Source: a virus (taxonomy: Duplodnaviria > Heunggongvirae > Uroviricota > Caudoviricetes). Taken from it: a stretch of DNA of 13,722 nt. The DNA lies in IMG/VR virus record IMGVR_UViG_2778261570_000018, positions 1 through 13,722 of that record. One strand, 5' to 3'. Numbering within the stretch: position 1 is the stretch's first letter; the number at the start of each line of letters is the position of its first letter. The translations under genes and the position numbers were made by a program. This document shows positions 1-13,574 of this stretch, piece after piece. Below the pieces are notes generated by a model. It saw only the letters and a program-made list of their open reading frames with translations. It did no database searches and was not told where the DNA came from.

Positions 1-215
1 GTGCTGCGGATGATTTCCTGTCGGTGATTAACCCGGAATCGCTGGTGATCAAACAAGGCTTTGCTGAACCGTCGCTGAAAGAAGCGGTAGCGGGTAAAGC
101 ATTCCAGTTTGAGCGTGAAGGTTATTTCTGCCTCGACAGCCGCCATTCTACGGCGGAAAAACCGGTATTTAACCGCACCGTTGGGCTGCGTGATACCTGG
201 GCGAAGTTAGGTTAA
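1..215 (+). CDS. glnS: 3' end of glutaminyl-tRNA synthetase gene (5'-truncated by window edge; reading frame starts at nt 3)
   Basis: Frame is open from the window start to TAA at 213-215. Translation ...[70 protein letters not shown] matches my recollection of the C-terminal region of enterobacterial GlnRS. The listed ORF start at 24 is an internal GTG, not a real start. Confidence 0.7.
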
Positions 216-240
216 TAGGTATTTCGCCACATGAAAAAGT

Positions 241-266
241 AAACGCCGCTACTGCGGCGTTTTTTA
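241..266. terminator. Rho-independent terminator shared by convergent glnS and the Dam-like gene
   Basis: Stem aaacgccgc (241-249), loop tact, stem gcggcgttt (254-262), followed by a T-run through 265. The minus-strand Dam-like stop codon (264-266) lies in the T-tract. Confidence 0.65.
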
Positions 267-1169
267 CTTCATTATTGCAATTATATCGTTAGCAACTACA
301 CGTGTTGACGCCTTGCAGGAAACCGACCGTCTGGCTGCCATATGATGTACTTTAAACCCGTTTCCTTCATATAGCTCACGGATGTTTGGAGCACCACTAT
401 TTGTTATCACTACCTTAGCGCCGCGCTGGTGGGCATCCACCAACAGTGATACAAGCCGTTTTTGTTCATCGAAACGGAAGCTATTTCCTGAATAGCTGGT
501 AAATCCCTCTGTATCCGGAAGCGGTTCATACGGCGGATCACAAAAAATCACATCGTCTTCACCAGCCGCCTCGATGACGCTAGCAAAGTCTCCTGATACA
601 AAGGAAGTGTTTTTGAGTACGTCATCAGCCAAAAATGCCTCCATCTCTGCATGTGGGAAGTAGGGCGCTTTGTATTTGCCATACCCCACGTTGAACTCGC
701 CATTTTGGTTGTACCGCGTTACGCCATTAAAACAGTGACGATTAAGGTACAAAAATGCGGCAGCATGATGTAGCTGGTCATATTTTCCTCTGTTAAATGC
801 CTCACGCACTTCGAGGTAAGCGTCAGCGTTGTTGTAATTTTTGAAAAAACTATATGACAGCGTGACGAGCGAATGTCCTTCTCGCTGCAATGTCTGATAG
901 AAGTTAATCAGGTCACCGTTAATATCATTAAGCAGGTTGTGGCGAAATCCTGCATTCGTAAATACGGAACCGCCACCAACGAATGGTTCTATTAACCGCT
1001 TACCGTGTGGTAGATGCTCAAGCACTGTAGGCAATTCTGAGAATTTACCACCTACCCATTTGAATATCGGACGCTCATATTCATCCGGAGTCCGAATGGT
1101 GCGCATATAGCTAATTTCAGCCATCGTATCCTGTTTTTCTATGGCTATGCTTGCTATAGATTTACTCAT
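264..1169 (-). CDS. Dam-family N6-adenine DNA methyltransferase (orphan; start codon uncertain, alternatives ATG 1124 or 1106)
   Basis: Translation contains FKWVGGK (AdoMet-binding motif, as in E. coli Dam LKWAGGK), PFVGGGSVF, LYLNR and the catalytic DPPY motif (VIFCDPPYEP). ATG at 1169 is preceded by AAGGGGG and overlaps the upstream gene stop (TATGAGTAA), suggesting translational coupling. Confidence 0.85.
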   Translation of the reverse strand: MSKSIASIAIEKQDTMAEISYMRTIRTPDEYERPIFKWVGGKFSELPTVLEHLPHGKRLIEPFVGGGSVFTNAGFRHNLLNDINGDLINFYQTLQREGHSLVTLSYSFFKNYNNADAYLEVREAFNRGKYDQLHHAAAFLYLNRHCFNGVTRYNQNGEFNVGYGKYKAPYFPHAEMEAFLADDVLKNTSFVSGDFASVIEAAGEDDVIFCDPPYEPLPDTEGFTSYSGNSFRFDEQKRLVSLLVDAHQRGAKVVITNSGAPNIRELYEGNGFKVHHMAARRSVSCKASTRVVANDIIAIMK

Positions 1170-1842
1170 AGAGCACCCCCTTATTCGCTTCGAAAACTGC
1201 CTTTGCGAATCCATGTGGAGTAGCACTTCGAAAATTAGCCCTGTCAGGCCCTGGTGGCGCGGCATGGATTCTGTTATCTGGCTTGCCTAATGATTCGTCC
1301 ATTAGGGCATCAGGCATGACAAAGCCCTGGCCGCTCCAGAGGCATGTTTTTTTGGTGTAGTTATCTTCCTGACAATATGCAGTGAAGAAGTAAGGGTGAA
1401 AGATGTGATCTGGCTTACGCCAGAATGTCGATATTTTGCTGACCGGATTTTCAATCATGTACGGACAACCGATCATCTTTGCAATGTCATAACACTGCCA
1501 GACAACCTGCATTGCTTTGAACTGGAAAACCGGATCTTTATTAGCCTTGTCCGAAAACCAGCGCGCGCCGGAAACAGCCAGGTCAGTACACGGTGGGAAC
1601 CCGGCCAGAAACACGATGCGCTGCAAATTCTTACGGAGAAAAGCGTATACTTCATCGCTATCGATGATCGCACTAATACGCGTCAGAACGGCACCTGATT
1701 GCATCCGCTCGTCACTGGTCGATAAGTGCTGTGGATCGACGATAGCGGCATCGACACCGTATTCCAGCCAGGGGGCAACCATTGCCCCCGTAAAATCACA
1801 AAGACTCACAACAAGCGGTCGGTTATTATCGTTCTGCTTCAC
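1162..1842 (-). CDS. Short DNA C5-cytosine methyltransferase-like protein (about 226 aa; start uncertain, GTG 1842 preferred over ORF-track TTG 1914 and ATG 1782)
   Basis: Ordered motifs with C5-MTase-like spacing: LCDFTGAM (motif I-like), GFPPCTD (PC catalytic Cys motif IV), IENPVS (ENV-like motif VI). GGAGG sits 9 nt upstream of GTG 1842. Starting at 1911/1914 would overlap RdgC by more than 80 nt. Confidence 0.5.
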
Positions 1843-2731
1843 CGCCAATGGCCTCCACCAGCGCGTTAAACAGTGCAGATAATTCGCCCGTAAAGAGCAC
1901 GAAATCAGCATCAAATCGTTGTGCTACATCCTCCCGGTCGATATCGTCGTTCTGGTCATAGAGATCATCACAGAATGTCAGGGCTTTGATACTCATATCA
2001 TCGTTGACTCTGAACGACGCACGGTCCATCCAGTTAATTGCAACGGTCGTAGCTACTTTCCCCGCCTCAATGTGAGACATAATCTCGTCGGACTGTAGAT
2101 CAACTTTGTTGCAGCGAACGGCACCACCATTATCGAGCAGACCCTTTAATGTGGCGTCTTCACCTGCTGTAAATCCGGCAGGGAAGCCGCTTTTAAACCA
2201 CTCGGTCATTGTAATTTCCAGCGGTTCGCGTGGTGTGAATGGAATGACAGGCAGGCTGCCGAGCGACTTTCGCAATAAAGCCAGCTGGTCCTCTGCCTTT
2301 TTGGCGCTGCTTGCCTCAACGAATACCAGATGGTTGCTGCGGTCGATCAGGATTTTGGCGAGTGATTTTCTCGTGAACGCGCGAGGCAAAAGTGAATGCA
2401 GGACTTCATCTTTAAGACTGTCTCTTTCCGTTTTCTTCAGCTTGCGGGCTTGCTCTTCTTCGAGTTTCAGGACTTTTTTCTGCAACTCTTCCTTGAGCAC
2501 CTGCGAGGGGAGAATTTTTTCTTCTCGCTTATGCTGTATTAGCAGAAAACCCTGGTATTCATGGGTGAGGTTGTCACCAAGAACAGGTGTCCAACCGACT
2601 TTAGCTGTGTCCTGAGAACCGCAAGGAGTAAACACGAATTTGCTAAGAGCATCGGATACTTCTGCGGCACTCCAGTTAACTTCACGTGAAAGACGATAGA
2701 TGAAGATGTTTTTGAAAGCGACTGATCTCAT
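1826..2731 (-). CDS. rdgC: RdgC-like recombination-associated DNA-binding protein (extra, island-borne copy)
   Basis: 301 aa, ATG at 2731. Collinear similarity to E. coli RdgC as I recall it ([83 protein letters not shown]-terminal GGEA.R). Confidence 0.85.
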
Positions 2732-2737
2732 GTTTCA

Positions 2738-2781
2738 CCAATTGTGTTAGAAAATTCTATTCAATTATCTAACACAATTGG
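2738..2781. promoter_or_regulatory. Perfect 13-bp inverted repeat with 18-bp AT-rich spacer in the spike-rdgC intergenic region (candidate operator)
   Basis: ccaattgtgttag (2738-2750) and ctaacacaattgg (2769-2781) are exact reverse complements. They lie between the spike-like gene stop (2791) and the rdgC start (2731). No U-tract follows on the transcribed strand, so a terminator is unlikely. Confidence 0.4.
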
Positions 2782-2790
2782 ATGTGTTTT

Positions 2791-3444
2791 CTATCCCTTC
2801 TTGAAATCAAAGTTGCTTGCGATAGCCTGGAAGGTGCCTCCAGCCTTGAAATCAATATTTTCGTCGGCTGTCACAGTAATGTTTTTGCCATTAACGCTGA
2901 TGTTATCGGCTGATTTGACGTTAACACTCCCTCCCGCATTCACTACTACATCAGCCGGACCAATGATGTATATCTGCCCTGATTCATTCATTCCAATCCT
3001 TGAGCCTGCTGCCGTATTCGCTATTTCATATCCACCGCCAGCCGTTCGCACTTCGAGCACATTGTTGCGGTGAATCACGAAATCTTTTGTCGCCGAAAAT
3101 TGCGGGCGGGGAGGCGCTCCGTCTACTTCTGGTGGCGTCCAGCCGCTACCATTGCCTGACGCCTCCGGCGCGACGTTTGGTACTCCGCCAGGCGCATCCT
3201 GAGCTGCGCCAACTATCATTGGGCGTCTGGTATCAATTCGACCATTAACATCCAGATAAGGAAACTCTACCCATACCAGGTCGCCTTTTACTGTAGGTAC
3301 AAAAGCGTTTCCGATGGGTAACAGGTATTCCGCCCAGGGTAGATCGTCATCAGGAACGCCATTCCAGTCAGGTAAAACACGGACTTGAGCACGCATAAGC
3401 CCTGCCGGGTGCACAGTTCCAACAATTTGCGCTCTACGCTTCAT
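2791..3444 (-). CDS. Phage baseplate spike protein, gpV/gp5-like (N-terminal OB-fold plus C-terminal beta-helix-like repeats)
   Basis: N-terminus GLMRAQVRVLPDWNGVPDDDLPWAEYLLPIGNAFVPTVKGDLVWVEFPYLDVNGRIDTRRPMIVGA fits the gpV/gp5/VgrG OB-fold pattern. C-terminus has G/N/V-rich repeats (VVVNAGGSVNVKSADNISVNGKNITVTADENIDFKAGG). The ATG overlaps the upstream stop as ATGA. Confidence 0.55.
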   Translation of the reverse strand: MKRRAQIVGTVHPAGLMRAQVRVLPDWNGVPDDDLPWAEYLLPIGNAFVPTVKGDLVWVEFPYLDVNGRIDTRRPMIVGAAQDAPGGVPNVAPEASGNGSGWTPPEVDGAPPRPQFSATKDFVIHRNNVLEVRTAGGGYEIANTAAGSRIGMNESGQIYIIGPADVVVNAGGSVNVKSADNISVNGKNITVTADENIDFKAGGTFQAIASNFDFKKG

Positions 3445-4421
3445 TTGTTCGGCACTCCCAATATCATTCGTGTTGTGTAGCCTACGCGGTCTTCAAAGTG
3501 CGCAACATTTTTTACTATCAGCTTACGGGGCATTGATTCATCAATGCGGTTTTCCTGGTCATAGCGGTATACGATAATCTCTATCACCATTCCCGGTTTT
3601 ATATCAGGATTGCCTGCGACTTCTATATCCATTTTGGGGACGAGAGACAGCTGCATATTGCGAAGAGTTTCCATATCAGAGTCGGATATATAACGCACTG
3701 GGAGTGAGCTATCGCCATATTCGACGTAGCCATCGGTCATGGAATACCCAACAAAACGATATTGATTCTTTGCTGTTGTCGCATGTTCCTGTTGGAGTAG
3801 GCGCATTTTGGACAAAGTGTATTCTGCTTTAGGGTTATTCCCCTCGTAGGTAAATGATGGCGTTTGCTTCATCAGATCAGCCAGGGTGTAAAAGTTAAAT
3901 TCCCCCCGGCATACCCAACATAATGCACCTTTGTCTCGCGCTATCTCCGAAAGCATTTTTGACGGTTTGTCACCGGCATTCAGATGATATGTAACTGCGC
4001 GTTTTAGCACGCTGCTGGTAATTTTAAGTTTGCCGGAATATGCCTTGAATATAGCGTCTGGTGTTTTGTTGGTATGTAAATTTGTGCGCGGGGAGGGGAT
4101 CTTAAACCTGCGCACGTCTTCACTGACAGCAATAACGGTAACAACATCACCAGCCAGCATTGCAGACGTAACAAAGAAATCTGTTTTAAAAGTGCCTGCA
4201 TTACCGTTTGGATCGCCCATTTCAGCCACCAGCGATGCACCGTATTTGGCTTTCCAGTCATCAATTACGGTGCCGGTAGCGTCATGAATTTCCAGTTTTA
4301 GCAAAGGGGCTTTGAGGCTGGTTTTTTCTACATATACTGCGGTAAAAATCCAGTCTCGTGGCACTTTGTTATCGTTAATGAGCACTGACTGTAGAAAATA
4401 TTGTTGTAACTCCTGGGCCAC
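3441..4421 (-). CDS. Hypothetical protein, 326 aa, in the tail/baseplate-like operon (possible hub-type protein; function not established)
   Basis: Long ORF with GTG start at 4421, 3 nt after the upstream stop, preceded by GGGGTGA. Its stop overlaps the spike gene start (ATGA). No family motif recognised with confidence. Confidence 0.55.
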   Translation of the reverse strand: MAQELQQYFLQSVLINDNKVPRDWIFTAVYVEKTSLKAPLLKLEIHDATGTVIDDWKAKYGASLVAEMGDPNGNAGTFKTDFFVTSAMLAGDVVTVIAVSEDVRRFKIPSPRTNLHTNKTPDAIFKAYSGKLKITSSVLKRAVTYHLNAGDKPSKMLSEIARDKGALCWVCRGEFNFYTLADLMKQTPSFTYEGNNPKAEYTLSKMRLLQQEHATTAKNQYRFVGYSMTDGYVEYGDSSLPVRYISDSDMETLRNMQLSLVPKMDIEVAGNPDIKPGMVIEIIVYRYDQENRIDESMPRKLIVKNVAHFEDRVGYTTRMILGVPNK

Positions 4422-4424
4422 TTA

Positions 4425-5192
4425 TCACCCCATAGATATCGAGGTTTCGGTAATAATACGTTTTGCGTCCAACTCCCATGCTGTGATCACGTCTGCAATC
4501 ACACTTATCGGCGCTTGTGTGGCATAAATACGCTCTTCTCCAATTGGTGCTGAAACATCCGTAAAGCCGACTTCTTTGGCATCCTGTATCGAGCAAATCA
4601 ACGGGACCGGGACACGAACAAGGTGAGTGGTGGCTTCAAATTGTGTACCTGTCATCAGGCGAAGCCGTGCGCCCAGCGAATTACACATCAGACTCATGGT
4701 CGCTTTATCAGTTGCCATTAACGTAACGTCATACGTCAGAATGGCCTGGGTGTATTCCAGTTCTGCTAAAGGCATTCCGGTATCCGGTTCGCAAAAACTG
4801 GCTACTTTTTTGCGGTCAATCTGCTGATCATCGTTGATATAATTGATATCCATAGTGCGTGAGATATTGACCAGGGGGAGAGCATCCCGGTTAATGTTCT
4901 GGTTTTCAGGTTTTCTCCCTTGCCCGGCATTTGCGCGACGAACTGCTTTAAGAAACTCGATCGCATTGTCGAAACGGGCCACATAGACACGCTCTGCTGG
5001 TGGACGATTCAGGAATGACGCAAAGCGTTTTTCTTCCGGCGCGGGGGCCACCAGTAAGATATCAGAAAAAATGTTGCTGATTAGCGTCGCAAACGCGTTA
5101 TCCACGTTTTCAAAGCCCGTGGTCTGGAATTTTCCTGTGCGTGAGGTTTGCCATTCACCTGTTCGCGCCAGGAGGGTTTTATTTGAAGTCAT
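4425..5192 (-). CDS. Hypothetical protein, 255 aa, in the tail/baseplate-like operon
   Basis: ATG at 5192 overlaps the upstream stop (ATGA). Uninterrupted ORF with position in a tightly coupled operon. No recognisable motif. Confidence 0.55.
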   Translation of the reverse strand: MTSNKTLLARTGEWQTSRTGKFQTTGFENVDNAFATLISNIFSDILLVAPAPEEKRFASFLNRPPAERVYVARFDNAIEFLKAVRRANAGQGRKPENQNINRDALPLVNISRTMDINYINDDQQIDRKKVASFCEPDTGMPLAELEYTQAILTYDVTLMATDKATMSLMCNSLGARLRLMTGTQFEATTHLVRVPVPLICSIQDAKEVGFTDVSAPIGEERIYATQAPISVIADVITAWELDAKRIITETSISMG

Positions 5193-5980
5193 TCGATCAC
5201 TCCGTTTTGAGTCGTATCAAAATTCCTGGCAGGTATGCAGTAGTAAAGCGAACCAACATGTTGTGTGCCGTAGCTAAAAATACGGTGCACGTACCACCAG
5301 CGGCGGGCTACGCCGTTTACCATCTCTTCATTCCATTCAAGAATTGATCCGACGGGGACTTTATTTGCTGCAATACGCAGAATCAGAACATCATCGGTTA
5401 AGCCATCCTGCTCACCGTCTGCGTCAATCGCATGGAAAGAGTCACGCCCGTCCGGGTTATCCAGCACATAAACGATTTCAGGTTCCTGGTAAGTCAGTTC
5501 GCGCTGGTTGTTATCCAGTTCAGTGAATGACTCTTCTCCTGTTTCGTCGCTGACTACCCCATATGTGCCAACATCTGGTCGATATAAGAGAGCCTGAAAC
5601 GCGTCTGGGCTGGATTCAATAATCAGCATCCAGTCTGCGCGGATTTGGTCGTTAAAGGCTTTATGCCCGTTATAGCGTGCTTTTAACTGTGGAGTCGGTT
5701 CTCTGCCAGCCAGGGAAGATGGAAGTATGGCTATATCTGATTCGCCAGCATCCGGAGTAAGGCCACCGTTGCTATCAGCAAAATTATCATGGCTATCAGC
5801 TTTGGCGGCGGGTTGCTCTTCCAGAATGCTGAATGAATCCGAACCGGTATTGCCATGTTCCGGCGCGCCTCCTGCATTCGCTTCAATCGGCGCTGGCGTT
5901 TCTCTCTGCGTGCTGTCATGTTCTGACTCCTTACTTGCCAGGTTTGCATCGTCAGCAAACCATTCGTCAAAACGGCCCAT
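5189..5980 (-). CDS. Hypothetical acidic protein, about 263 aa, first gene of the tail/baseplate-like operon (start ATG 5980; ORF-track TTG 5992 unlikely)
   Basis: GAGG sits 6 nt upstream of ATG 5980. The N-terminal half or so is D/E/S/G-rich low complexity; the C-terminal part appears globular (WWYVHRIFSYG...). Confidence 0.55.
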   Translation of the reverse strand: MGRFDEWFADDANLASKESEHDSTQRETPAPIEANAGGAPEHGNTGSDSFSILEEQPAAKADSHDNFADSNGGLTPDAGESDIAILPSSLAGREPTPQLKARYNGHKAFNDQIRADWMLIIESSPDAFQALLYRPDVGTYGVVSDETGEESFTELDNNQRELTYQEPEIVYVLDNPDGRDSFHAIDADGEQDGLTDDVLILRIAANKVPVGSILEWNEEMVNGVARRWWYVHRIFSYGTQHVGSLYYCIPARNFDTTQNGVIE

Positions 5981-6074
5981 AAGCATCCTCAAAGGTCGAT
6001 CTGTCAGGTATCGAAAGGAAGATTTTCGGGAGATTGTGATTTTGGATGAAGGAGGGGGAATTCATAAAATGCAC

Positions 6075-6103
6075 TTGCGCACAGTGCAACGGTGCGCTAT
6101 AGT
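6075..6103 (+). promoter_or_regulatory. Candidate sigma70 promoter of higBA-1 with an operator-like inverted repeat in the spacer
   Basis: TTGCGC (6075-6080), 17-bp spacer, TATAGT (6098-6103). Inverted repeat gcgcac (6077-6082) / gtgcgc (6092-6097) sits between the -35 and -10, a typical autorepression layout. GGAGG at 6126-6130 precedes ATG 6143. Confidence 0.4.
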
Positions 6104-6142
6104 TATGGCATTCAGTAATCCTCACGGAGGATCAAATGGCTA

Positions 6143-6445
6143 ATGACCAAAAAAATTAACATAAAGGATTTCAGGGATGCGTGGCTTGATGATTTTTTTG
6201 AATTTTCAACACCACATAGAAAGATACCTCCTGATATTCATATGACATTGTCACGGAAGTTGGACATTATCAATGCCGCAACTACCTGTAATGATTTAAG
6301 ATCACCACCAGGTAATCGGTATGAGGAACTGTCAGGGAAGCTAAATGGCTATTCATCAGTAAGGGTGAATAAGCAATATAGGTTAATTTTTAAGTGGGTT
6401 AACGGAAAGGCCGAGGACTTGTATCTCGACCCTCACAAATACTAA
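6143..6445 (+). CDS. higB: HigB-family toxin (Rts1 HigB / killer-protein type, RelE/ParE superfamily)
   Basis: 100 aa. C-terminal pattern EELSGKLNGYSSVRVNKQYRLIFKWVNGKAEDLYLDPHKY parallels Rts1 HigB (...LKGDREGYWSITVRANWRITFQFINGD..L..EDYH as recalled). Toxin-first gene order with a downstream HTH antitoxin. Confidence 0.8.
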   Translation: MTKKINIKDFRDAWLDDFFEFSTPHRKIPPDIHMTLSRKLDIINAATTCNDLRSPPGNRYEELSGKLNGYSSVRVNKQYRLIFKWVNGKAEDLYLDPHKY

Positions 6446-6515
6446 AACAGATACCCGGTTACGAACCGGGTTCTGACCAGAGTCCACTTAATACGCACGC
6501 TAGTAAGGGCAAAAA

Positions 6516-6854
6516 ATGAAACAGGCAACCAGAAAACCGACGACCGTAGGTGATATCCTGCTGTACGAATACCTGGAGCCGTTAGAGCTGAAGATCAACG
6601 AGTTAGCAGAAATACTTCATGTTCATCGTAACACCGTAAGTGCTCTTGTTAATAATAATCGTAAGCTAACGATGGATATGGCATATCGCCTGGCAAAAGC
6701 ATTCGATACTTCTGTAGATTTTTGGATTAATCTTCAGACCGCAGTAGATCTGTGGGAAGTCGAAAATGATATGCGCGTTCAGGAAGAGTTAAGTCGTATC
6801 AATACTGCTGAAAAATTTATTTCTCAGCGGAACCTGAATAAAAAAGCAGCCTGA
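6516..6854 (+). CDS. higA: HigA-family antitoxin (XRE-type HTH, addiction-module antidote)
   Basis: 112 aa. GDILLYEYLEPLELKINELAEILHVHRNTVSALVNNNRKLTMDMAYRLAKAFDTSVDFWINLQ matches the HigA antidote HTH pattern. TAAGGG is 6 nt upstream of ATG 6516. Confidence 0.8.
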   Translation: MKQATRKPTTVGDILLYEYLEPLELKINELAEILHVHRNTVSALVNNNRKLTMDMAYRLAKAFDTSVDFWINLQTAVDLWEVENDMRVQEELSRINTAEKFISQRNLNKKAA

Positions 6855-6873
6855 TATAGTAAAACACATACAA

Positions 6874-6905
6874 AAAGCCCACTTAGCAAGTGGGCTTTCC
6901 TTTGT
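6874..6905 (+). terminator. Intrinsic terminator after higBA-1
   Basis: Stem aaagcccact (6874-6883), loop tagca, stem agtgggcttt (6889-6898), then cctttgtaatt. Confidence 0.55.
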
Positions 6906-6910
6906 AATTA

Positions 6911-7270
6911 ATGAACATTAAACCCATCCGTACAGAACAAGATTATGAGGCCGCACTGCGTGCGGTCGAACCGATGTTCGATAACGAACCGGAAATGAAT
7001 ACTCCGGAAGGTGATTTCTTTGAGGTTATGAGTCTTCTCATTGAGGAGTACGAGAAAAAACATTACCCAATTGAGCCACCATCACCTATTGAGGCCATTA
7101 AATTCCGTATGGAACAGCAAGGGCTGACCGTGAAGGATCTGGAACCGGCAATTGGTAAGTCAAACCGTGTTTACGAAGTGCTTAATGGGACACGAAATTT
7201 GACGTTACCTATGATTCGTCGTTTACATGCCCAGTTTGGTATTCCACTGGAAAGCCTGGTTGGCGTTTGA
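6911..7270 (+). CDS. Stand-alone HigA-like antitoxin/regulator of the E. coli YgjM (K-12 HigA) type, C-terminal HTH
   Basis: 119 aa. C-terminal GLTVKDLEPAIGKSNRVYEVLNGTRNLTLPMIRRLHAQFGIPLESL parallels K-12 HigA (GLTLSDLPEIGSKSMVSRVLSGKRKLTLEHAKKLATRFGISPALF as recalled). N-terminal EQDYEAALRAVEPMF parallels EEQYTQALELVDHLL. No cognate toxin gene is adjacent. Confidence 0.7.
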   Translation: MNIKPIRTEQDYEAALRAVEPMFDNEPEMNTPEGDFFEVMSLLIEEYEKKHYPIEPPSPIEAIKFRMEQQGLTVKDLEPAIGKSNRVYEVLNGTRNLTLPMIRRLHAQFGIPLESLVGV

Positions 7271-7275
7271 GTTTT

Positions 7276-7299
7276 GCGGTCTGGATGACCGCTGTTTTT
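7276..7299 (+). terminator. Intrinsic terminator after the HigA-like gene
   Basis: Stem gcggtc (7276-7281), loop tggat, stem gaccgc (7287-7292), then tgttttt. Confidence 0.55.
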
Positions 7300-7333
7300 A
7301 TAAAAAATAGATACTAGAAATTTGGTAGCATAT

Positions 7334-8113
7334 ATGAGTACAGATTCATCAGTAAAGAAGACATCTGAATCAGATAAAGAAAATGAGTCCGTTGTTGATT
7401 CCGTCAAGAATACAATGGAATATGTTATAAAAGACAAAGTATTTAATAAGCTTTTTGCATATATTTTTATATCTTTTCTGGTTGTTAACTGGAGAGATAT
7501 ATTAATTTTGTTCAAATCAAAAGAAGATGTTCTATATACTCTGTCAATAGTTTTTACCGGTGAAAAAATACAATTTCTTGATGGCGAGATTTTACCTCCT
7601 TGGTTTGCCCACTTTTTCTTGCCGTTTTTCTATGGTGTGATTGCGTCGATTGTGGCACCAGTAATTACACTTGCGGTATCTTGCATTACAACTAAGGTGT
7701 ACTATAAAATAAAAATTTTGGACAATAAAACAGACGAAAACGAGAAAGAGAAATTAGCAAAAAGAGCCAAGAAAAGAGCTGAGCGTGAAATAGAGGCTAG
7801 CTATAGCCAACAAAAGCTGGATGAAAGAAAAAAAGAACTGGAAGACATTTTAAACAAAATAGAAGATGAAAAAGAAAAATATGATAAAATGAAAGAAAGG
7901 TTTGATGATGCCATAACGCTTACATATAAAAATATTCACATTTTGCCTACTCTGTATGAGAATAGGAAATGTAAAATTGAAACTCCGCAGGATTTATATG
8001 ATTTTATTGCAGCAATAAAGAAAACATCATTCTATAGTACTGATTTTAATGAATTGTTCTCTGATATTTCTCGATTGTATTCTGAAATGCAAACTGATTT
8101 ATCAGAAAAGTGA
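7334..8113 (+). CDS. Hypothetical membrane protein with two predicted TM helices and a long charged coiled-coil segment (AT-rich, likely foreign gene)
   Basis: 259 aa from ATG 7334 (the ORF-track start at 7322 is TTG). Hydrophobic segments LFAYIFISFLVVNW and FFLPFFYGVIASIVAPVITLAVSCI, then a K/E-rich heptad-like stretch (NEKEKLAKRAKKRAEREIEASYSQQKLDERKKELEDILNKIEDEKEKYDKMKERF). Coding region is visibly AT-rich compared with its flanks. Confidence 0.6.
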   Translation: MSTDSSVKKTSESDKENESVVDSVKNTMEYVIKDKVFNKLFAYIFISFLVVNWRDILILFKSKEDVLYTLSIVFTGEKIQFLDGEILPPWFAHFFLPFFYGVIASIVAPVITLAVSCITTKVYYKIKILDNKTDENEKEKLAKRAKKRAEREIEASYSQQKLDERKKELEDILNKIEDEKEKYDKMKERFDDAITLTYKNIHILPTLYENRKCKIETPQDLYDFIAAIKKTSFYSTDFNELFSDISRLYSEMQTDLSEK

Positions 8114-8114
8114 A

Positions 8115-8137
8115 AGCCTGGCATAGACCACCAGGCT
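8115..8137. terminator. Hairpin between convergent genes (weak candidate bidirectional terminator)
   Basis: Stem agcctgg (8115-8121), 9-nt loop, stem ccaggct (8131-8137). No tight U-tract on either strand. Confidence 0.3.
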
Positions 8138-8148
8138 ATATGTGTGGT

Positions 8149-9342
8149 TTATGCTTTTTTTACATACGCCATAAACATTTTTTCAGCATGTTCTTGTGGC
8201 GTTCCTGCCATGACAAGCGCATCAATGAACGCCTGCTTCTTCAGTGCGAACTGATCGGCCAGGCGTTGCTGAAGCTCCTTGTTTTTCTGTTTCTCACGTT
8301 GCAACGCCGCTTCTTTTGCTGCCGCCCGTTTTTTCTGTGCGTCTGACAACTTTCTGGCCTTGGTCAGTTGGTCACGTAGCTTGTCAATCTTGCCGTTGTC
8401 CTTTGCCAGTTTTGTGCTTAAAGCGGCCTGGCGCTTCTGATAGAGCCTCCATTCTCGCTTGGCAGCGTCAACGTTCGTTTTACTGCTACGATTGCGATTA
8501 AACTCCTTCTCGTCTTCTTTTGAGAAGTGTTTGGTTGTACGGCGGCGATCGTCACCAAATGCAATTTGCGTTGCAGCCTTTTGTAGCGCACGAGCAATAC
8601 TCATTTGCCAACTGGCGGACTGTAACCGCGTCATTGAGTGGATCACGTGTTTACAGGCGACGCCTTGCAGCTTCGGGTTGCGAACTTTTGGATAGGCGTA
8701 TTCTTTTGGCGGTGCCAGGGCAAAGTTACCCGCAGTGGCGATGTAACGATACCAGTATTGATGACGACCACAGTCACAATCGAAAGACACTCGCCCGGCG
8801 CACAGTGATTTAGTGATTTTGAGAGCTGATTTATCGTCTTCTGCGATGTCATCAACCATCTGATCCCATTCTTCAAAGCGTATCCGGACGATATGGTGCT
8901 GGTGGACGGATATATCCGATGCTTCTACGCGGATATTAATCACATTGTGGCGAAGAGATACGGGTGTAGCTCTTTTGATACCAGATCCGTCATCCACGGC
9001 GTTATTTGCACGCTTAATATCGATAGCCTGGCTGGATGCCACCAGCTGGGCGTATGTGATGCCAGCCGTCTTGCTGTCATATTTTTCGCGCGTTTTACTC
9101 CGTAGCTTTTCGAAGCCTTTCAGATCGTCTCGCGTAAAGAACGTGCCGCCTTTTTTCTTCCCTAACTTGAGAATATCTTCGACGGATTTGTTCCTAAGTC
9201 TGCCTGGCGTCAGCGTCCGGTGAGCTTGTCGGCGCTTACGGGTTTGTTCTTTCCTGATAAGGTCGAATAAACGCGTGAAGTCCTTAGAGGACAGACCGTC
9301 AGTGATATAGCGCCCGTCCTGGTTTTTCAGGAAATCAGGCAT
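8149..9342 (-). CDS. Hypothetical basic protein, 397 aa, with central Cys/His cluster and C-terminal coiled coil (possible nucleic-acid-binding zinc-finger protein)
   Basis: ATG at 9342 with GGAG 7 nt upstream, overlapping the upstream gene stop by 8 nt (ATGCCTGA). K/R-rich N-terminus, CAGRVSFDCDCGRHQYWYRY...GVACKHVIH cluster, and a K/Q/A/E-rich C-terminal region of roughly 100 aa. Confidence 0.6.
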   Translation of the reverse strand: MPDFLKNQDGRYITDGLSSKDFTRLFDLIRKEQTRKRRQAHRTLTPGRLRNKSVEDILKLGKKKGGTFFTRDDLKGFEKLRSKTREKYDSKTAGITYAQLVASSQAIDIKRANNAVDDGSGIKRATPVSLRHNVINIRVEASDISVHQHHIVRIRFEEWDQMVDDIAEDDKSALKITKSLCAGRVSFDCDCGRHQYWYRYIATAGNFALAPPKEYAYPKVRNPKLQGVACKHVIHSMTRLQSASWQMSIARALQKAATQIAFGDDRRRTTKHFSKEDEKEFNRNRSSKTNVDAAKREWRLYQKRQAALSTKLAKDNGKIDKLRDQLTKARKLSDAQKKRAAAKEAALQREKQKNKELQQRLADQFALKKQAFIDALVMAGTPQEHAEKMFMAYVKKA

Positions 9343-9664
9343 TTTCTATCTCCGGTTCCGCGCTCGCGTAATCACGGATCTTGTTCCTCAGCCATGCCAC
9401 ATCAGGAAGAGTTAACGTGGTCCCGGCGGGCATTTCTTCCATTTCTGACTCATGGCCCACCAGCACCCGGAATACCCAGCGCAAATCTGCATTGCCATAC
9501 GCCCTGTAGGCTGCAAGGTCTGAACGATATACTTCATCAATCTTTATCGTGTACTGGAAATTATCAGAGTGATACTCCGATACCCGCTTAATCATTTCCT
9601 GGTGAAACAGCGCACGAAAAATATCGTCTTCAATGTACCTATCGTCGAGTCTGCTATAGCCCAT
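9335..9664 (-). CDS. Small protein with LysM-like / phage tail protein X (gpX)-like C-terminal region
   Basis: 109 aa, ATG at 9664 with GAGGGG 7 nt upstream. YTIKIDEVYRSDLAAYRAYGNADLRWVFRVLVGHE..EMPAGTTLTLPDV resembles the P2 gpX pattern (GDTLDAICVRYYGR...VLAANPGLA...LPHGTAVELPDV as recalled). Assignment is tentative. Confidence 0.4.
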   Translation of the reverse strand: MGYSRLDDRYIEDDIFRALFHQEMIKRVSEYHSDNFQYTIKIDEVYRSDLAAYRAYGNADLRWVFRVLVGHESEMEEMPAGTTLTLPDVAWLRNKIRDYASAEPEIENA

Positions 9665-9725
9665 AACAAAGCCCCTCAGTCATAACCTGGGGGAAACTGT
9701 ATGTAGGGTGTGAAATGCGAGAAAG

Positions 9726-9751
9726 CAGCGTCACCGGGCCTGGTGACGCTG
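9726..9751 (-). terminator. Stem-loop downstream of higA-2 (weak terminator or attenuator before the gpX-like gene)
   Basis: Perfect 10-bp stem cagcgtcacc (9726-9735) / ggtgacgctg (9742-9751) with a 6-nt loop. On the minus strand it is followed by a C/U-rich stretch (cuuucucgc) rather than a clean U-run. Confidence 0.35.
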
Positions 9752-9756
9752 TGAAG

Positions 9757-10038
9757 TTATGCGTGGAAAAATAATGGACGGATGTTTGGGCGAGCGGTTT
9801 GCGAAGCAACCCAAAGCTCATACTGAGATTGCATACCGGTCCACATTTCGGCACTGGTTCCAAGAGCGGACTCCAGACGAAGTGCCATATCAGCAGAAAT
9901 GCCTGCTTTTTCGTTCAGAATTCGGGAAAGTGCCGTGCGAGTAATGCCTAATGCAGCAGCGGCGTCTGTGACTGACATGTCTCCCAAATATTCACGAAGA
10001 ACCGCGCCAGGATGCGCGGGATTATGCATACGACTCAT
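9757..10038 (-). CDS. higA: HigA-family antitoxin (XRE-type HTH), second module
   Basis: [72 protein letters not shown] parallels Rts1 HigA (HPGE...SRLL..K......[21 protein letters not shown] as recalled). ATG 10038 is preferred, with GAGGAA overlapping the higB-2 stop; the ORF-track start at 10050 is TTG. Confidence 0.8.
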
Positions 10039-10046
10039 AGTGTTCC

Positions 10047-10328
10047 TCAATGATAATCCTGATAGTCAACTAGAATTGCGTCTTCTCCTTCAAATCGGAA
10101 GGTAAGTCGCCAGTTACCGTTTACCGATATTGCCCAGTGACCTTTAAGGTCCGCCCCCTTTAGAGGGTGCAATTCCCATCCAGGCGCAGACATATCGTCC
10201 GGGCGTTTAGCTGTATTAAGAGCAGTCAATTGAATGCGTAGCTTAACCGCATGTTTGGCCTGAATGCCTGCGGTTGAACCTGTCTTGAAAAAGCGTTCAA
10301 GCCCTTTATGGCGAAATGACTTAATCAA
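10047..10328 (-). CDS. higB: HigB-family toxin (Rts1 HigB type), second module; likely TTG start at 10328
   Basis: Translation from TTG 10328 gives [18 protein letters not shown]...[43 protein letters not shown], closely paralleling Rts1 HigB (MIKSFKHKGLKLLFEKG...HPLKGDREGYWSITVRANWRITFQFINGDAYILNYEDYH as recalled). GGATGG lies 7 nt upstream. The ORF-track start at 10391 adds a non-conserved 21-aa extension. Confidence 0.8.
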
Positions 10329-10354
10329 AATAATTCCATCCGTGCGCGTAACCT

Positions 10355-10391
10355 GTGTATATACACTACACGCAGAGGGAGCGAAATGCAA
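10355..10391 (-). promoter_or_regulatory. Candidate higBA-2 promoter with a 12-bp perfect palindrome operator
   Basis: On the minus strand: TTGCAT (plus 10386-10391), 17-bp spacer, TAGTGT (plus 10363-10368). Perfect palindrome GTGTATATACAC (10355-10366) overlaps the -10 and predicted transcription start. Confidence 0.4.
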
Positions 10392-10664
10392 GCACTATCC
10401 GTATAGACAGAGTTTCTTCGCCGCCCTGGAATTTATTGACTGTCAACAAGTGACTTTCATTAATCTTAAGGCATGGACCAGCTCGATAGTGAGCTGGGTG
10501 TTATTTACCGATCGAATGGATTCGAAAAGATGAATATTTTTAATAAGCTGATTGATTTATTGAATAAATTCATTAGTGCTTCTTTAACTCAGCAGGTATC
10601 CACGTCAGTGTTTTTGTTACTCTTCTACCTGGTATTGAGGGAGTTAACAAAGCTACTAATGTGA

Positions 10665-11318
10665 TCAAAGTATCACGGTATCTTCATCAACTTCTTTCCC
10701 AGCCAGTGACTTTGGCTGGGAACTGCCTGCTTTAACTTTTTCATGCCCAATAATGGAAAGGAACGAAGTGAGTATGCCTGTTTTTTGCTCTTTCTCGACT
10801 GTACCGGTCATCTGCTCTACGTAATCCGCACTGGCAACGTTGTGGTATACGGTCGCGTAGCAACACAGGATCATCAGAATATGCTCCGGCCTGATATCCT
10901 GCCAGTTCACCCTGTAGACTTCTTCTCCGTTACCGTTGTATTCGGTATCAACGATAGAGTCGGGGATTTCGAAAGCACCTTTGTTATTTTGCGGCAGGGA
11001 TAATAGCTTCTGGAGTTTTAACTCTCTGTATCTTTCCATCCCGACGATGATTGCTGCTCTGCCATCGGCATGACGGGTCTTGAGAGTCACCTGGCTTGCT
11101 CCGGTGCCAGCGGAGATCGTTGGCGTAATTTCGTCTACCAGTACCTTAAATTTGCTTTTCCGCAGGGCTGCTATAGCTGGAGGAATTTTTTGCTTTTGCT
11201 CCAATGCTGACGCGGGAAGGGGTTTTACTTCGTTAATAATGAGAGCACCGTCTTTCAGTATTGCAGTGAGCATTTGAGGCTTGCTGGTGGTCAGGCTGAA
11301 TATTGCGATCTTTTCCAT
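10665..11318 (-). CDS. Hypothetical protein, about 217 aa, unknown function (start ATG 11318)
   Basis: ORF with GGAGAAAGGA immediately upstream of ATG 11318. The ORF-track N-terminal extension to 11360 runs into the terminator hairpin and is not credible. No family recognised. Confidence 0.55.
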   Translation of the reverse strand: MEKIAIFSLTTSKPQMLTAILKDGALIINEVKPLPASALEQKQKIPPAIAALRKSKFKVLVDEITPTISAGTGASQVTLKTRHADGRAAIIVGMERYRELKLQKLLSLPQNNKGAFEIPDSIVDTEYNGNGEEVYRVNWQDIRPEHILMILCCYATVYHNVASADYVEQMTGTVEKEQKTGILTSFLSIIGHEKVKAGSSQPKSLAGKEVDEDTVIL

Positions 11319-11344
11319 TGTCCTTTCTCCACGGATGACGGATA

Positions 11345-11370
11345 CAAAAAAAGGCCGCACATGGCGGCCT
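11345..11370 (-). terminator. Canonical rho-independent terminator on the minus strand, immediately upstream of the RBS of the 217-aa gene
   Basis: Minus-strand RNA: stem aggccgc, loop caugu, stem gcggccu, then seven U (plus 11352-11370 hairpin, A-run 11346-11352). Lies about 25 nt upstream of ATG 11318. Confidence 0.65.
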
Positions 11371-11601
11371 GCTTTGGCGTTATGACTCCCTACCGCGCTT
11401 CGGCTGAAAGTTAATCGTCAAAAGAACCTTCAACGGGAGCCGTTAGCGCGATGGATTATGTGCAGTTTGTGATTTCCAAAATAGTGTCAACTACTTTTTG
11501 TGGATTTTATTTTTTGTCCGAAATTTGGCCTAAATCATGTTGATTTGGCTGATTATTTTTATAACATAAAACTTCATTTTGTTTACATGAAGGACGGTGT
11601 A

Positions 11602-12216
11602 GTGAAGTTAAGGGTTTTAGGGACCGCGCTCGCGGCTATGTTGGGATGCGTATCTGTTAATACTGCCAATGCAACTGCGTTACCTGCAAAGTATTGGGCT
11701 GGTGTGAAAGTGTTGCGGAACGCTGAAAAAGGCAATACAGCTGATGATATTTTCAAGTTTTGCCAAAAAGAAAATATCCCTCTGCACCCGGTTGAGCCGT
11801 ACTTTACAGGAAAGAATGATTTCTGTGTGTTTGCGTATACCGCAGACCAAACAGATAAGGCTATACGCAAGACAGGGTATTCTACTCAAGACACTATGGC
11901 GTCCTTAAGTAAAAACTGGTTGCAGTTTGAGGTTTACCGTAGTGAAGGAATGGGAGAGCTATTGCAGCCACTGTATATGCTGGCGTTAGTTCCGGAAGGG
12001 CAGCAGTTCCTTATTCGAAAAGGAATGCTTCGGAAAAGCGATGTAACCGGATTCAATAACACGATGGAGCTTGAACGCTCAATGAAGCAAAAGCAAGCGC
12101 CTAAGCAGCCAACAGCCGAATGTATTAGCAGCGAGATACAAAAGGCATTAAGCGAGCAGCCTTACATTGATCGTGGTGTGGCGGAAATGGCTGCCAAAAT
12201 GAAGTGTTCCAATTAA
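11602..12216 (+). CDS. Hypothetical secreted/periplasmic protein with N-terminal signal peptide (start GTG 11602; alternative ATG 11587)
   Basis: AAGGA (11590-11594) is 7 nt upstream of GTG 11602. N-terminus MKLRVLGTALAAMLGCVSVNTANA is a typical signal peptide (ANA cleavage site or a weak lipobox). Mature part contains several Cys. The ORF-track start at 11500 lacks an RBS. Confidence 0.55.
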   Translation: MKLRVLGTALAAMLGCVSVNTANATALPAKYWAGVKVLRNAEKGNTADDIFKFCQKENIPLHPVEPYFTGKNDFCVFAYTADQTDKAIRKTGYSTQDTMASLSKNWLQFEVYRSEGMGELLQPLYMLALVPEGQQFLIRKGMLRKSDVTGFNNTMELERSMKQKQAPKQPTAECISSEIQKALSEQPYIDRGVAEMAAKMKCSN

Positions 12217-12259
12217 CGTCAAATAGAATAACAAGATAGTAAATTTTGGAGTTAATGAA

Positions 12260-13081
12260 ATGTTCTTTATGAAAAATGGAAAAAGATTTTCCGCAACAAT
12301 GCTTGCTACTATTGTCGCTCTTTTCGTTCCCACATTCACCTTTGCTTATGATTTTAGCAAAATTGACTGCAATGCCCCTAAAACCAGGCAGATGTTAATC
12401 GATGATTATAATGAACTACTCAAGGACGATCAGGAAGCAATCACTGTAATTGATGCTTATAATCAGATTAATGAAATAAGCGAAAAAAGTAAGCTCCAAT
12501 GTTTAGGCACGTATGAGTTCTCAGATGGAAGTGCGCTTAGAGTTAGATATAAGTTATATTTAAATAGCCTCGGCACACCCATATATGAATTTGCTCCAGT
12601 TGAGGAATTAACGCAGGATGATGTAAGCGCATCTATTCAAAATATCCCTGCAACCACAGCGAGTAGGACTGGGGGGAATGAAGAAACGTATGCCTGCAAG
12701 GTGGCTGTAACTTACAAGGGGGAGCGTTCTAACTATATGGGGGATTCCGGAACATGGGATCGTGTGATTACTGACTATGGCACTTATTTTTCATGGGATT
12801 TACCACGCGGAAACCGAGGCAACAGCACAGGTCAGGATGCTTTTAGTGGCATGGACGAATCAAAGCCTGTATTAGAAAATCAGCTAGTGAGAAAGGAAAC
12901 TGAAAAAGATGGTAGCGTGGTTGATGAGTTTAGGACAGAAGTGAGTTATGGAGATAAACAACCGGTACATAAGTTTGTATATGCCCGTAGAATAAAACCT
13001 ACAGGAACGAGAGAATATTATGTCACTGATTTGACGGACAAGCGGGCATTTATGTTTCTGAATTGCCAGCAAGATTCGTAA
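12260..13081 (+). CDS. Hypothetical secreted protein with N-terminal signal peptide
   Basis: GGAG is 8 nt upstream of ATG 12260. N-terminus MFFMKNGKRFSATMLATIVALFVPTFTFA. AT-rich coding region, 43 nt downstream of the preceding gene (likely co-transcribed). Confidence 0.6.
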   Translation: MFFMKNGKRFSATMLATIVALFVPTFTFAYDFSKIDCNAPKTRQMLIDDYNELLKDDQEAITVIDAYNQINEISEKSKLQCLGTYEFSDGSALRVRYKLYLNSLGTPIYEFAPVEELTQDDVSASIQNIPATTASRTGGNEETYACKVAVTYKGERSNYMGDSGTWDRVITDYGTYFSWDLPRGNRGNSTGQDAFSGMDESKPVLENQLVRKETEKDGSVVDEFRTEVSYGDKQPVHKFVYARRIKPTGTREYYVTDLTDKRAFMFLNCQQDS

Positions 13082-13086
13082 TTGAT

Positions 13087-13124
13087 AAAGCAGGCTTAAC
13101 GACTAAGCCTGCTTTTTGAATTTT
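13087..13124 (+). terminator. Intrinsic terminator after the secreted-protein operon (also abuts the stop of the convergent membrane-protein gene)
   Basis: 11-bp perfect stem aaagcaggctt (13087-13097) / aagcctgcttt (13105-13115), 7-nt loop, then tttttgaatttt. Confidence 0.6.
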
Positions 13125-13473
13125 ACTCGGTAATAGTTTTGCAGTTGTTTTGGTTTAAGACCAATCCAAGTTTGCTGGCGGCCAACTCATTTTCTGTGTG
13201 AGAGCCAGCAAATACAAATCCTTGTTTTATCTTATTTACGGTGAAATATTTATTGTATATAAATGCCCAGACAAGTGAAGCTACCCAAGGACCAATTCCT
13301 GCAGTGAGGAATGCCAGGATTAGCATCACAACGAACACCCCGATGAAAGTTATAAAGTCTTTCCTGAACAAAGCCGGGAAGGCACCAAAAAAGAACGTAG
13401 TCCAGGAGAATCCATAAAAGCCTGAGATGGACTCGCCTGTCCGAGGATTTTCTAAGTTAATTTTAGTAGCCAA
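13123..13473 (-). CDS. Small inner-membrane protein (116 aa, two predicted TM segments), TTG start
   Basis: Hydrophobic stretches FYGFSWTTFFFGAFPALF and FIGVFVVMLILAFLTAGIGPWVASLVWAFIY. AAAGGA is 9 nt upstream of TTG 13473. No in-frame ATG is available near the N-terminus. Confidence 0.55.
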   Translation of the reverse strand: MATKINLENPRTGESISGFYGFSWTTFFFGAFPALFRKDFITFIGVFVVMLILAFLTAGIGPWVASLVWAFIYNKYFTVNKIKQGFVFAGSHTENELAASKLGLVLNQNNCKTITE

Positions 13474-13530
13474 AGTTATTCATCCTTTAACGTAAAAAAA
13501 CAAATAATTATAAAGCTGTGTGAGTGTGCT

Positions 13531-13559
13531 ATTTTACTAATCTACACTATGTTATGCAA
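13531..13559 (-). promoter_or_regulatory. Sigma70-like promoter for the membrane-protein gene
   Basis: On the minus strand: TTGCAT (plus 13554-13559), 17-bp spacer, TAAAAT (plus 13531-13536). About 50 nt upstream of the TTG start. Confidence 0.5.
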
Positions 13560-13574
13560 TTTATTGGTATCATG

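Follow-up and report, generated by a model that had tools for sequence, protein, structure and literature searches.

A toxinless HigA-type antitoxin gene in a D6-like phage-plasmid as the probable remnant of a displaced higB2-higA2 module

Why should an intact antitoxin gene stand on its own directly behind the terminator of another toxin-antitoxin (TA) module? The question is raised by higA2, a plus-strand gene in the 13,722-nt stretch of DNA analysed here (the window), which was identified as part of a P1-like phage-plasmid of the phage D6 type: window positions 1-11644 are 99% identical to the E. coli plasmid pAPEC201603 (93,835 bp), and phage D6 itself matches the region at 97% with an identical layout, in which four plus-strand genes (orf70-73, with orf70-72 being higB1, higA1 and higA2) lie between minus-strand homologues of the P1 tail genes 7 and 25. 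The slot filled by this plus-strand insert (5993-8148) is a hot spot for swaps, its TA content and its downstream gene varying independently among otherwise near-identical plasmids. The first-pass annotation had left two explanations for the gene side by side, namely that it is the remnant of a displaced module or that, as a transcription factor, it has been given the new task of controlling nearby cargo. Comparison with sister plasmids favours the former, and higA2 is probably the stranded antitoxin of a displaced higB2-higA2 pair, left without function after a cassette swap.

The orphan gene and its missing signals

The orphan reading frame is evidently a real gene, since its product has thousands of homologues (best E 7e-67). 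The protein, HigA2, aligns over its full length with the structures of E. coli K-12 HigA/YgjM (5ifg, 5ycl; E 1e-7, residues 6-112 against 21-129), which upholds the earlier assignment to the K-12 YgjM type, and the homology spans both elements of the layout, an N-terminal helical toxin-binding part and a C-terminal helix-turn-helix (HTH). HTH_3 is its sole Pfam match (residues 63-115, in the C-terminal half); the protein also matches phrog_1373 (E 2e-43), and an NCBIfam search with the 119 residues returned no family match. Close relatives of HigA2 are encoded right after a PF09907 HigB gene and behind palindromic operators, a likeness to the K-12 HigB-HigA pair (YgjN-YgjM), with which HigA2 shares the antitoxin architecture and whole-length homology. 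Unlike the K-12 locus, however, the window has no toxin gene, operators, promoter or ribosome-binding site for higA2, and identity to the K-12 protein is low. By its sequence HigA2 is therefore assigned to the YgjM-type family, but it lacks the locus context of that family: no PF09907 HigB gene lies immediately upstream, and no autoregulatory palindromic operator precedes it in a promoter of its own. The module formed by a PF09907 toxin and a YgjM-type HigA is presumably the one known as COG4680/COG5499.

How could such a gene be expressed? Its ATG lies 12 nt past the stem of the higBA-1 hairpin and about 6 nt past the T-rich tail, and the 20 nt before it (GGGCTTTCCTTTGTAATTA) contain no GGAG, GAGG or AGGA, whereas in paired relatives a GGAG stands 7-8 nt before higA2, within the last codons of the toxin gene. 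A scan of the plus strand from 6656 to 7187 found no sigma-70-like site. At its far end higA2 has a terminator (a hairpin at 7276-7292 plus a T-run) that has been kept with the orphan; in L012 and L013 the paired operon is closed by an identical one, so that this is the terminator native to the old higB2-higA2 pair. In all these points, the start just 6 nt beyond the T-tract of the preceding terminator, the want of a Shine-Dalgarno sequence and of an obvious promoter, and the presence of a terminator of its own, the first-pass annotation was borne out. Taken at face value, the lost signals suggest that higA2 would be expressed weakly or not at all and would have no current function. The higBA-1 hairpin upstream (centroid energy -15.5 kcal/mol, z -3.2), which TTTCCTTTGT follows, is kept in copies from E. 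albertii and Escherichia sp. with changes in the loop, and it is terminator-like on the minus strand as well. Read-through in the plus direction could nevertheless be substantial, as judged from the tail TTTCCTTTG, which is an imperfect U-tract.

Two side observations concern this stretch. By eye, TGATATAGT at 6852-6860, which overlaps the stop codon of higA1 and is replaced by TGATATTGT at the same place in L016 and L017, resembles an extended -10 element, and transcription from it would start immediately upstream of the higBA-1 hairpin. Minus-strand terminator-like hairpins occur in the slot at 6900-6872, 8137-8115 and 6471-6453.

Could the partner toxin have moved or been broken up? A tblastn search for HigB2-like coding remnants found none in the window or in the complete pAPEC201603 (best E 0.8), so that a relocated or fragmented higB2 was rejected, and the earlier statement that the gene has no partner toxin stands.

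The displaced module and the breakpoints of its replacement

Which arrangement occupied the site before? Among sister plasmids that agree in size class and in MOB-suite replicon (rep_cluster_1704), the slot is found in three forms. Form A has the layout of the window, higB1-higA1-terminator-higA2; in form B higB1-higA1 is present but higA2 behind it is reduced to its first ~182 bp; and form C, represented by L012 and L013, has an intact operon of higB2, a PF09907 toxin gene (E 3e-34), and higA2 in the same slot between the same two tail genes. An intact pair is thus present at the orthologous site in relatives, with the flank on the non-toxin side shared. The antitoxins themselves are nearly indistinguishable: HigA2 of the window is identical to that of L012 at 118 of 119 positions, C41S being the sole difference, and a single protein accession (WP_021551809.1) covers HigA2 in both orphan (L003, L004) and paired (L013) settings. 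Of 120 homologues, 116 have Cys at residue 41, and the only copies with Ser there are orphan or truncated ones. The same association is seen farther away, on the chromosomes of Citrobacter, Kluyvera and Xenorhabdus, where genes for HigA2 homologues of 82-86% identity start 4 nt past a 100-aa PF09907 HigB gene. Given that one residue separates it from a paired copy, it is possible that HigA2 of the window may still bind and neutralise HigB.

Alignment of the orphan and paired forms yields both breakpoints (Table 1), and with them and the intact pair at the same site the earlier suggestion of a displaced module is confirmed. On the left, the 14-mer GGAGATTGTGATTT is found again at L012 position 3104; beyond it divergence is complete, and rightward of it the sequence belongs to the higBA-1 cassette alone. 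On the right, megablast homology to the paired plasmids begins at window position 6904, and here the old operon has lost both its GGAG ribosome-binding site and the toxin stop codon. According to the alignment, about 380 bp went out (operators, promoter, higB2 and ribosome-binding site) and about 860 bp came in (the higBA-1 module with its own terminator). The junction is no assembly artefact, for it recurs in phage D6 and in many plasmids assembled independently, between which the hairpin loop shows point differences.

Table 1. Positions of the junctions, genes and terminators in the slot (window coordinates), with further genes of the nearest plasmid (coordinates of the named sequences)
Feature	Position	Strand	Description
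Left junction	6029-6042		GGAGATTGTGATTT, last block common with the higB2-higA2 plasmids
higBA-1 promoter region	6043-6142	+	Palindrome TGCACTTGCGCACAGTGCA at 6070-6088; region absent from form C plasmids
higB1	6143-6445	+	RelE-fold toxin, PF05015 HigB-like (E 2.2e-35); annotated as RelE/ParE family toxin
higA1	6516-6854	+	Cognate antitoxin of higB1; TIGR02607 (E 7.9e-30); HTH_3
higBA-1 terminator	6874-6905	+	Hairpin 6874-6898 (11 bp, 3-nt loop), then T-rich tail
Right junction	6901-6910		CCTTTGTAATTA-ATG in the orphan form, CTGGAGTAAATC-ATG in the paired form
Orphan higA2	6911-7270	+	119 aa, ATG start; YgjM/K-12-type HigA antitoxin; intact
higA2 native terminator	7276-7300	+	Hairpin 7276-7292 and T-run; kept with the orphan
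Extra genes of pAPEC201603, outside the window	L053 20430-21005, L053 31289-31890, L054 12166-13827

The incoming cassette appears self-contained. The palindrome in its promoter region, the probable operator of HigA-1, bears no relation to that of HigA2 (TCCCA-N3-TGGGA, see below). A search for a donor of higBA-1 together with the hairpin found chromosomal homologues of at most 88% identity, each with a different downstream sequence, and for that reason the arrival of the hairpin with the cassette stays an inference. The spacer between higB1 and higA1 (6446-6515) is, as a separate observation, unusually long at 70 nt and contains a strong hairpin (6453-6471), which might set the toxin-to-antitoxin ratio.

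We propose the following history. An HigB2/HigA2 module would once have held the accessory-gene slot between the gene 7 and gene 25 homologues of D6-like phage-plasmids, until a single recombination event, with crossovers at about window 6042 and 6901-6910, exchanged the operators, promoter, higB2 and the ribosome-binding site inside the higB2 end for the cassette made up of promoter, higB1, higA1 and terminator. The new arrangement would then have spread among sister plasmids by homologous recombination, for which, as the pattern of alleles suggests, the gene 7 flank and higA2 served as arms. This last step finds support in the divergence of the genes concerned: higA2 alleles differ at dS 0.13-0.27, whereas the adjacent higBA-1 is nearly identical in the same plasmids (dS 0 between the window and L003), which indicates that the cassette moved by recombination into pre-existing higA2 alleles that would have diverged while still paired. 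With only one residue different from a paired copy, the protein left behind would have remained competent as antitoxin and repressor. Since promoter, operator and Shine-Dalgarno sequence have gone, however, HigA2 would be made only by read-through of the higBA-1 terminator combined with Shine-Dalgarno-independent initiation on the AU-rich leader. It would be needed neither by higBA-1 nor by the downstream gene, and would now be decaying in sister lineages, an ordinary route of decay for TA modules. No description of this cassette-swap history was found in the literature, the D6 genome paper (PMC5800970) standing outside that comparison.

Decay of the orphan and alternative roles for HigA2

What has become of the orphan since the exchange? 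Among 109 PLSDB plasmids that match the cassette, the 3' half of higA2 is present in 36, half of which (18) also have higB2; the tally thus comprises about 18 paired copies, 18 intact orphans and about 73 truncated orphans. At least 17 of the 18 plasmids with an intact orphan keep an annotated, uninterrupted higA2 reading frame, and the viable phage D6 keeps the gene too. The truncation of form B, which PGAP calls a pseudogene with a missing C-terminus, ends at window position 7092 in all of the ~73 copies, and with one common endpoint these copies may stem from a single event rather than from repeated loss; by that event the downstream gene was exchanged for another allele as well. L016 from E. 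albertii is truncated at a second place, near 7000-7010, and a 169-kb Salmonella plasmid (H55) has a similar endpoint and is probably an instance of it also. L017, an Escherichia sp. contig from one draft assembly, has a 1-bp insertion that shifts the frame at about codon 62, together with five private replacements. These independent lesions in sister lineages (at 7092, at ~7000-7010 and by frameshift in L017) are what is expected of a dispensable remnant of a degraded TA locus, and they show that HigA2 is required by neither higBA-1 nor the downstream gene and that loss of the orphan does no harm. Among the orphan copies dN/dS is 0.04-0.06, which could reflect continued purifying selection; the same alleles also circulate in paired operons, however, and the low ratio is for that reason not decisive.

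Has the orphan perhaps been kept to act in trans, as an anti-addiction or counter-defence antitoxin against HigB2 encoded elsewhere? HigA2 would then be expressed at a low level by read-through from the higBA-1 promoter, and the HigB2 it met would come from competing D6-like plasmids of the same replicon, which could be displaced without post-segregational killing, or from resident lambdoid prophages, if HigB2 is used there to abort infection. The 118/119 identity to a paired antitoxin agrees with such a role, as does the fact that paired and orphan plasmids both belong to rep_cluster_1704 and are thus likely to compete. Potential chromosomal targets are plentiful, with about 151 higB2-higA2 loci in 5,426 complete E. 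coli genomes, and a lambdoid prophage of the O103 strain RM8385 has one such locus in its immunity region, with HigB2 and HigA2 90% and 93% identical, respectively, to the plasmid versions. The HigB2/HigA2 family is moreover related to components A and B of the abortive-infection system PD-lambda-2 (PMC9519451), orphan antitoxins of phages and plasmids have been demonstrated or proposed to act in counter-defence (PMC11257639, PMC11541004), and most full-length copies of higA2 have an intact reading frame and a low dN/dS. That ratio is, on the other hand, explained by exchange of alleles with paired operons, and the gene has no promoter, no Shine-Dalgarno sequence and a terminator 12 nt upstream. 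The HTH half of higA2 has been lost from about 80% of the higBA-1-bearing plasmids, and the gene is inactivated in two further ways; the derived C41S exchange affects a nearly invariant residue; and plasmid copies are not enriched in genomes that have chromosomal higB2, as at most ~4 genomes have two records and ~3 would do so by chance, given 115 plasmid and 151 chromosomal places among the 5,426 genomes. We therefore regard it as unlikely that read-through HigA2 immunises a minority of D6-like phage-plasmids against the HigB2 of incompatible sister plasmids and of lambdoid prophages in pathogenic E. coli. Were it so, HigA2 would be an anti-addiction or counter-defence antitoxin of phage-plasmids that arose as a by-product of a TA cassette swap, a type II HigA would be added to the few orphan antitoxins of phages that overcome exclusion by toxins, and a simple system for testing would be at hand, phage D6 being cultivable. 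As to the distribution of the chromosomal loci, those among the matches listed are mostly from Shiga-toxin-producing serogroups, and the RM8385 pair (L052 4001-4665) lies between dicB/ydfC and repressor-like genes.

A role closer to home, as a transcription factor over the downstream gene for a membrane or coiled-coil protein (7334-8113) or over the higBA-1 promoter, was the other explanation left by the first-pass annotation, and it can be confronted with the operator that HigA2 should recognise. The palindrome TCCCA-N3-TGGGA stands upstream of the toxin gene, in one or two copies, in all six paired promoters examined (6/6), and the second copy in L012 is placed between the hexamers TTTACA and TACTAT, 17 nt apart, which would be a classic autorepression layout. 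An exact copy of the palindrome occurs neither in the 13.7-kb window nor anywhere in the 93,835-bp pAPEC201603; in the window, matches with 2-3 mismatches are at or below chance expectation, and one match with an N4 spacer lies inside a coding sequence. It is true that the HTH domain is intact and that both candidate targets adjoin higA2, but a terminator separates higA2 from 7334-8113, higBA-1 is maintained in about 73 plasmids in which higA2 has lost its HTH half, and the phrog_8191 gene at 7334-8113 accompanies truncated higA2 (L014, L055) and is missing beside the intact gene (L003, L004). With the operator gone, the cargo gene occurring independently of intact higA2 and a terminator in between, the idea of a regulator repurposed for neighbouring cargo finds no support and is highly improbable. 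Hardly more than a nominal chance is left to the notion that higB1-higA1-higA2 is a true three-component TA system, in which HigA2 would act as an additional antitoxin or a dedicated regulator, as in PaaR-PaaA-ParE or in toxin-antitoxin-chaperone systems. The three genes are adjacent and co-oriented, and are inherited together in D6 and about 18 PLSDB plasmids; yet a terminator parts higA1 from higA2, most D6-like plasmids keep higBA-1 beside a truncated higA2, and HigA2 is elsewhere always paired with a toxin of a different family (PF09907). Homologues of higBA-1 in ~30 genomes of other genera have no neighbouring higA2, that is, the third gene does not co-occur across lineages, which argues against a conserved three-gene system. 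HigA2 was also considered as an antitoxin for the 259-aa product of 7334-8113 or as a second antitoxin for HigB1, and both ideas were rejected, as both genes persist beside truncated higA2.

Related systems and other variable genes

Orphan antitoxins are common in populations of Klebsiella and E. coli, where the usual interpretation is that of TA loci in decay (PMC7192599, PMC10790755). The stranded higA2 resembles these catalogued cases in being unpaired, in having kept the context on its non-toxin side (native terminator and downstream flank) and in having an intact pair in sister genomes. Unlike them, it lies on a phage-plasmid, both breakpoints are readable, and its toxin was not mutated or simply deleted but precisely replaced by a complete TA module of another family. 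If the remnant reading is correct, the locus offers a clean and fully readable example of TA module turnover on mobile elements, in which one module replaced the toxin half of another in a fixed accessory slot of a phage tail operon and the antitoxin remained as a footprint; the leftover gene probably also acted as a recombination arm before it decayed. It would likewise serve as a caution that an unpaired HTH gene beside cargo need not be a regulator.

Two other groups of genes invite comparison. In PD-lambda-2, component B consists of a HigA-like HTH and a C-terminal peptidase (~400 aa) and is encoded with a HigB-like component A and a third gene (Vassallo et al. 2022, PMC9519451). HigA2 matches the first 119 of 402 positions of the PD-Lambda-2_B profile (E 4e-43), and HigB2 of the sister plasmids matches PD-Lambda-2_A (E 1e-41). 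As a component of such a system HigA2 was nevertheless rejected: it has 119 aa, the window contains no C-terminal peptidase, A component or third gene, and the neighbouring 259-aa protein has no PADLOC match, so that the likeness is one of shared domains only. Phage orphan antitoxins such as the anti-DarTG1 factor of T4-like phages (PMC11257639) are, like higA2, toxinless antitoxin homologues on a phage genome. Unlike those genes, which are expressed and have a measured counter-defence effect, higA2 shows no visible expression signals, and most sister elements of the window have lost its DNA-binding half.

The gene downstream of higA2 (7334-8113, plus strand) encodes a 259-aa protein of phrog_8191, a family of unknown function. 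The protein has hydrophobic stretches, and its C-terminal half is rich in Lys and Glu and resembles a coiled coil; it gave no Pfam match above threshold and, as mentioned, none in PADLOC. In sister plasmids the alleles of the gene measure 729, 738, 780 or 828 bp, or the gene is missing altogether, and it may be an accessory gene of the exclusion or defence type. Variation extends beyond the slot. A second pair of RelE/ParE and HigA type, on the minus strand (9757-10038 and 10047-10328), is present in pAPEC201603 and L013 and absent from L002-L004, L012 and L014; with this presence in some sister plasmids and absence from others, it is another optional TA module. Toward the right end of the window, identity to pAPEC201603 drops to 88% at 12233-13561, against the 99% of positions 1-11644, and this drop is a mosaic boundary. 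Outside the region that corresponds to the window, pAPEC201603 also bears a gene for the Thoeris anti-defence protein Tad2, phd-doc and a gene for glutaminyl-tRNA synthetase (Table 1).
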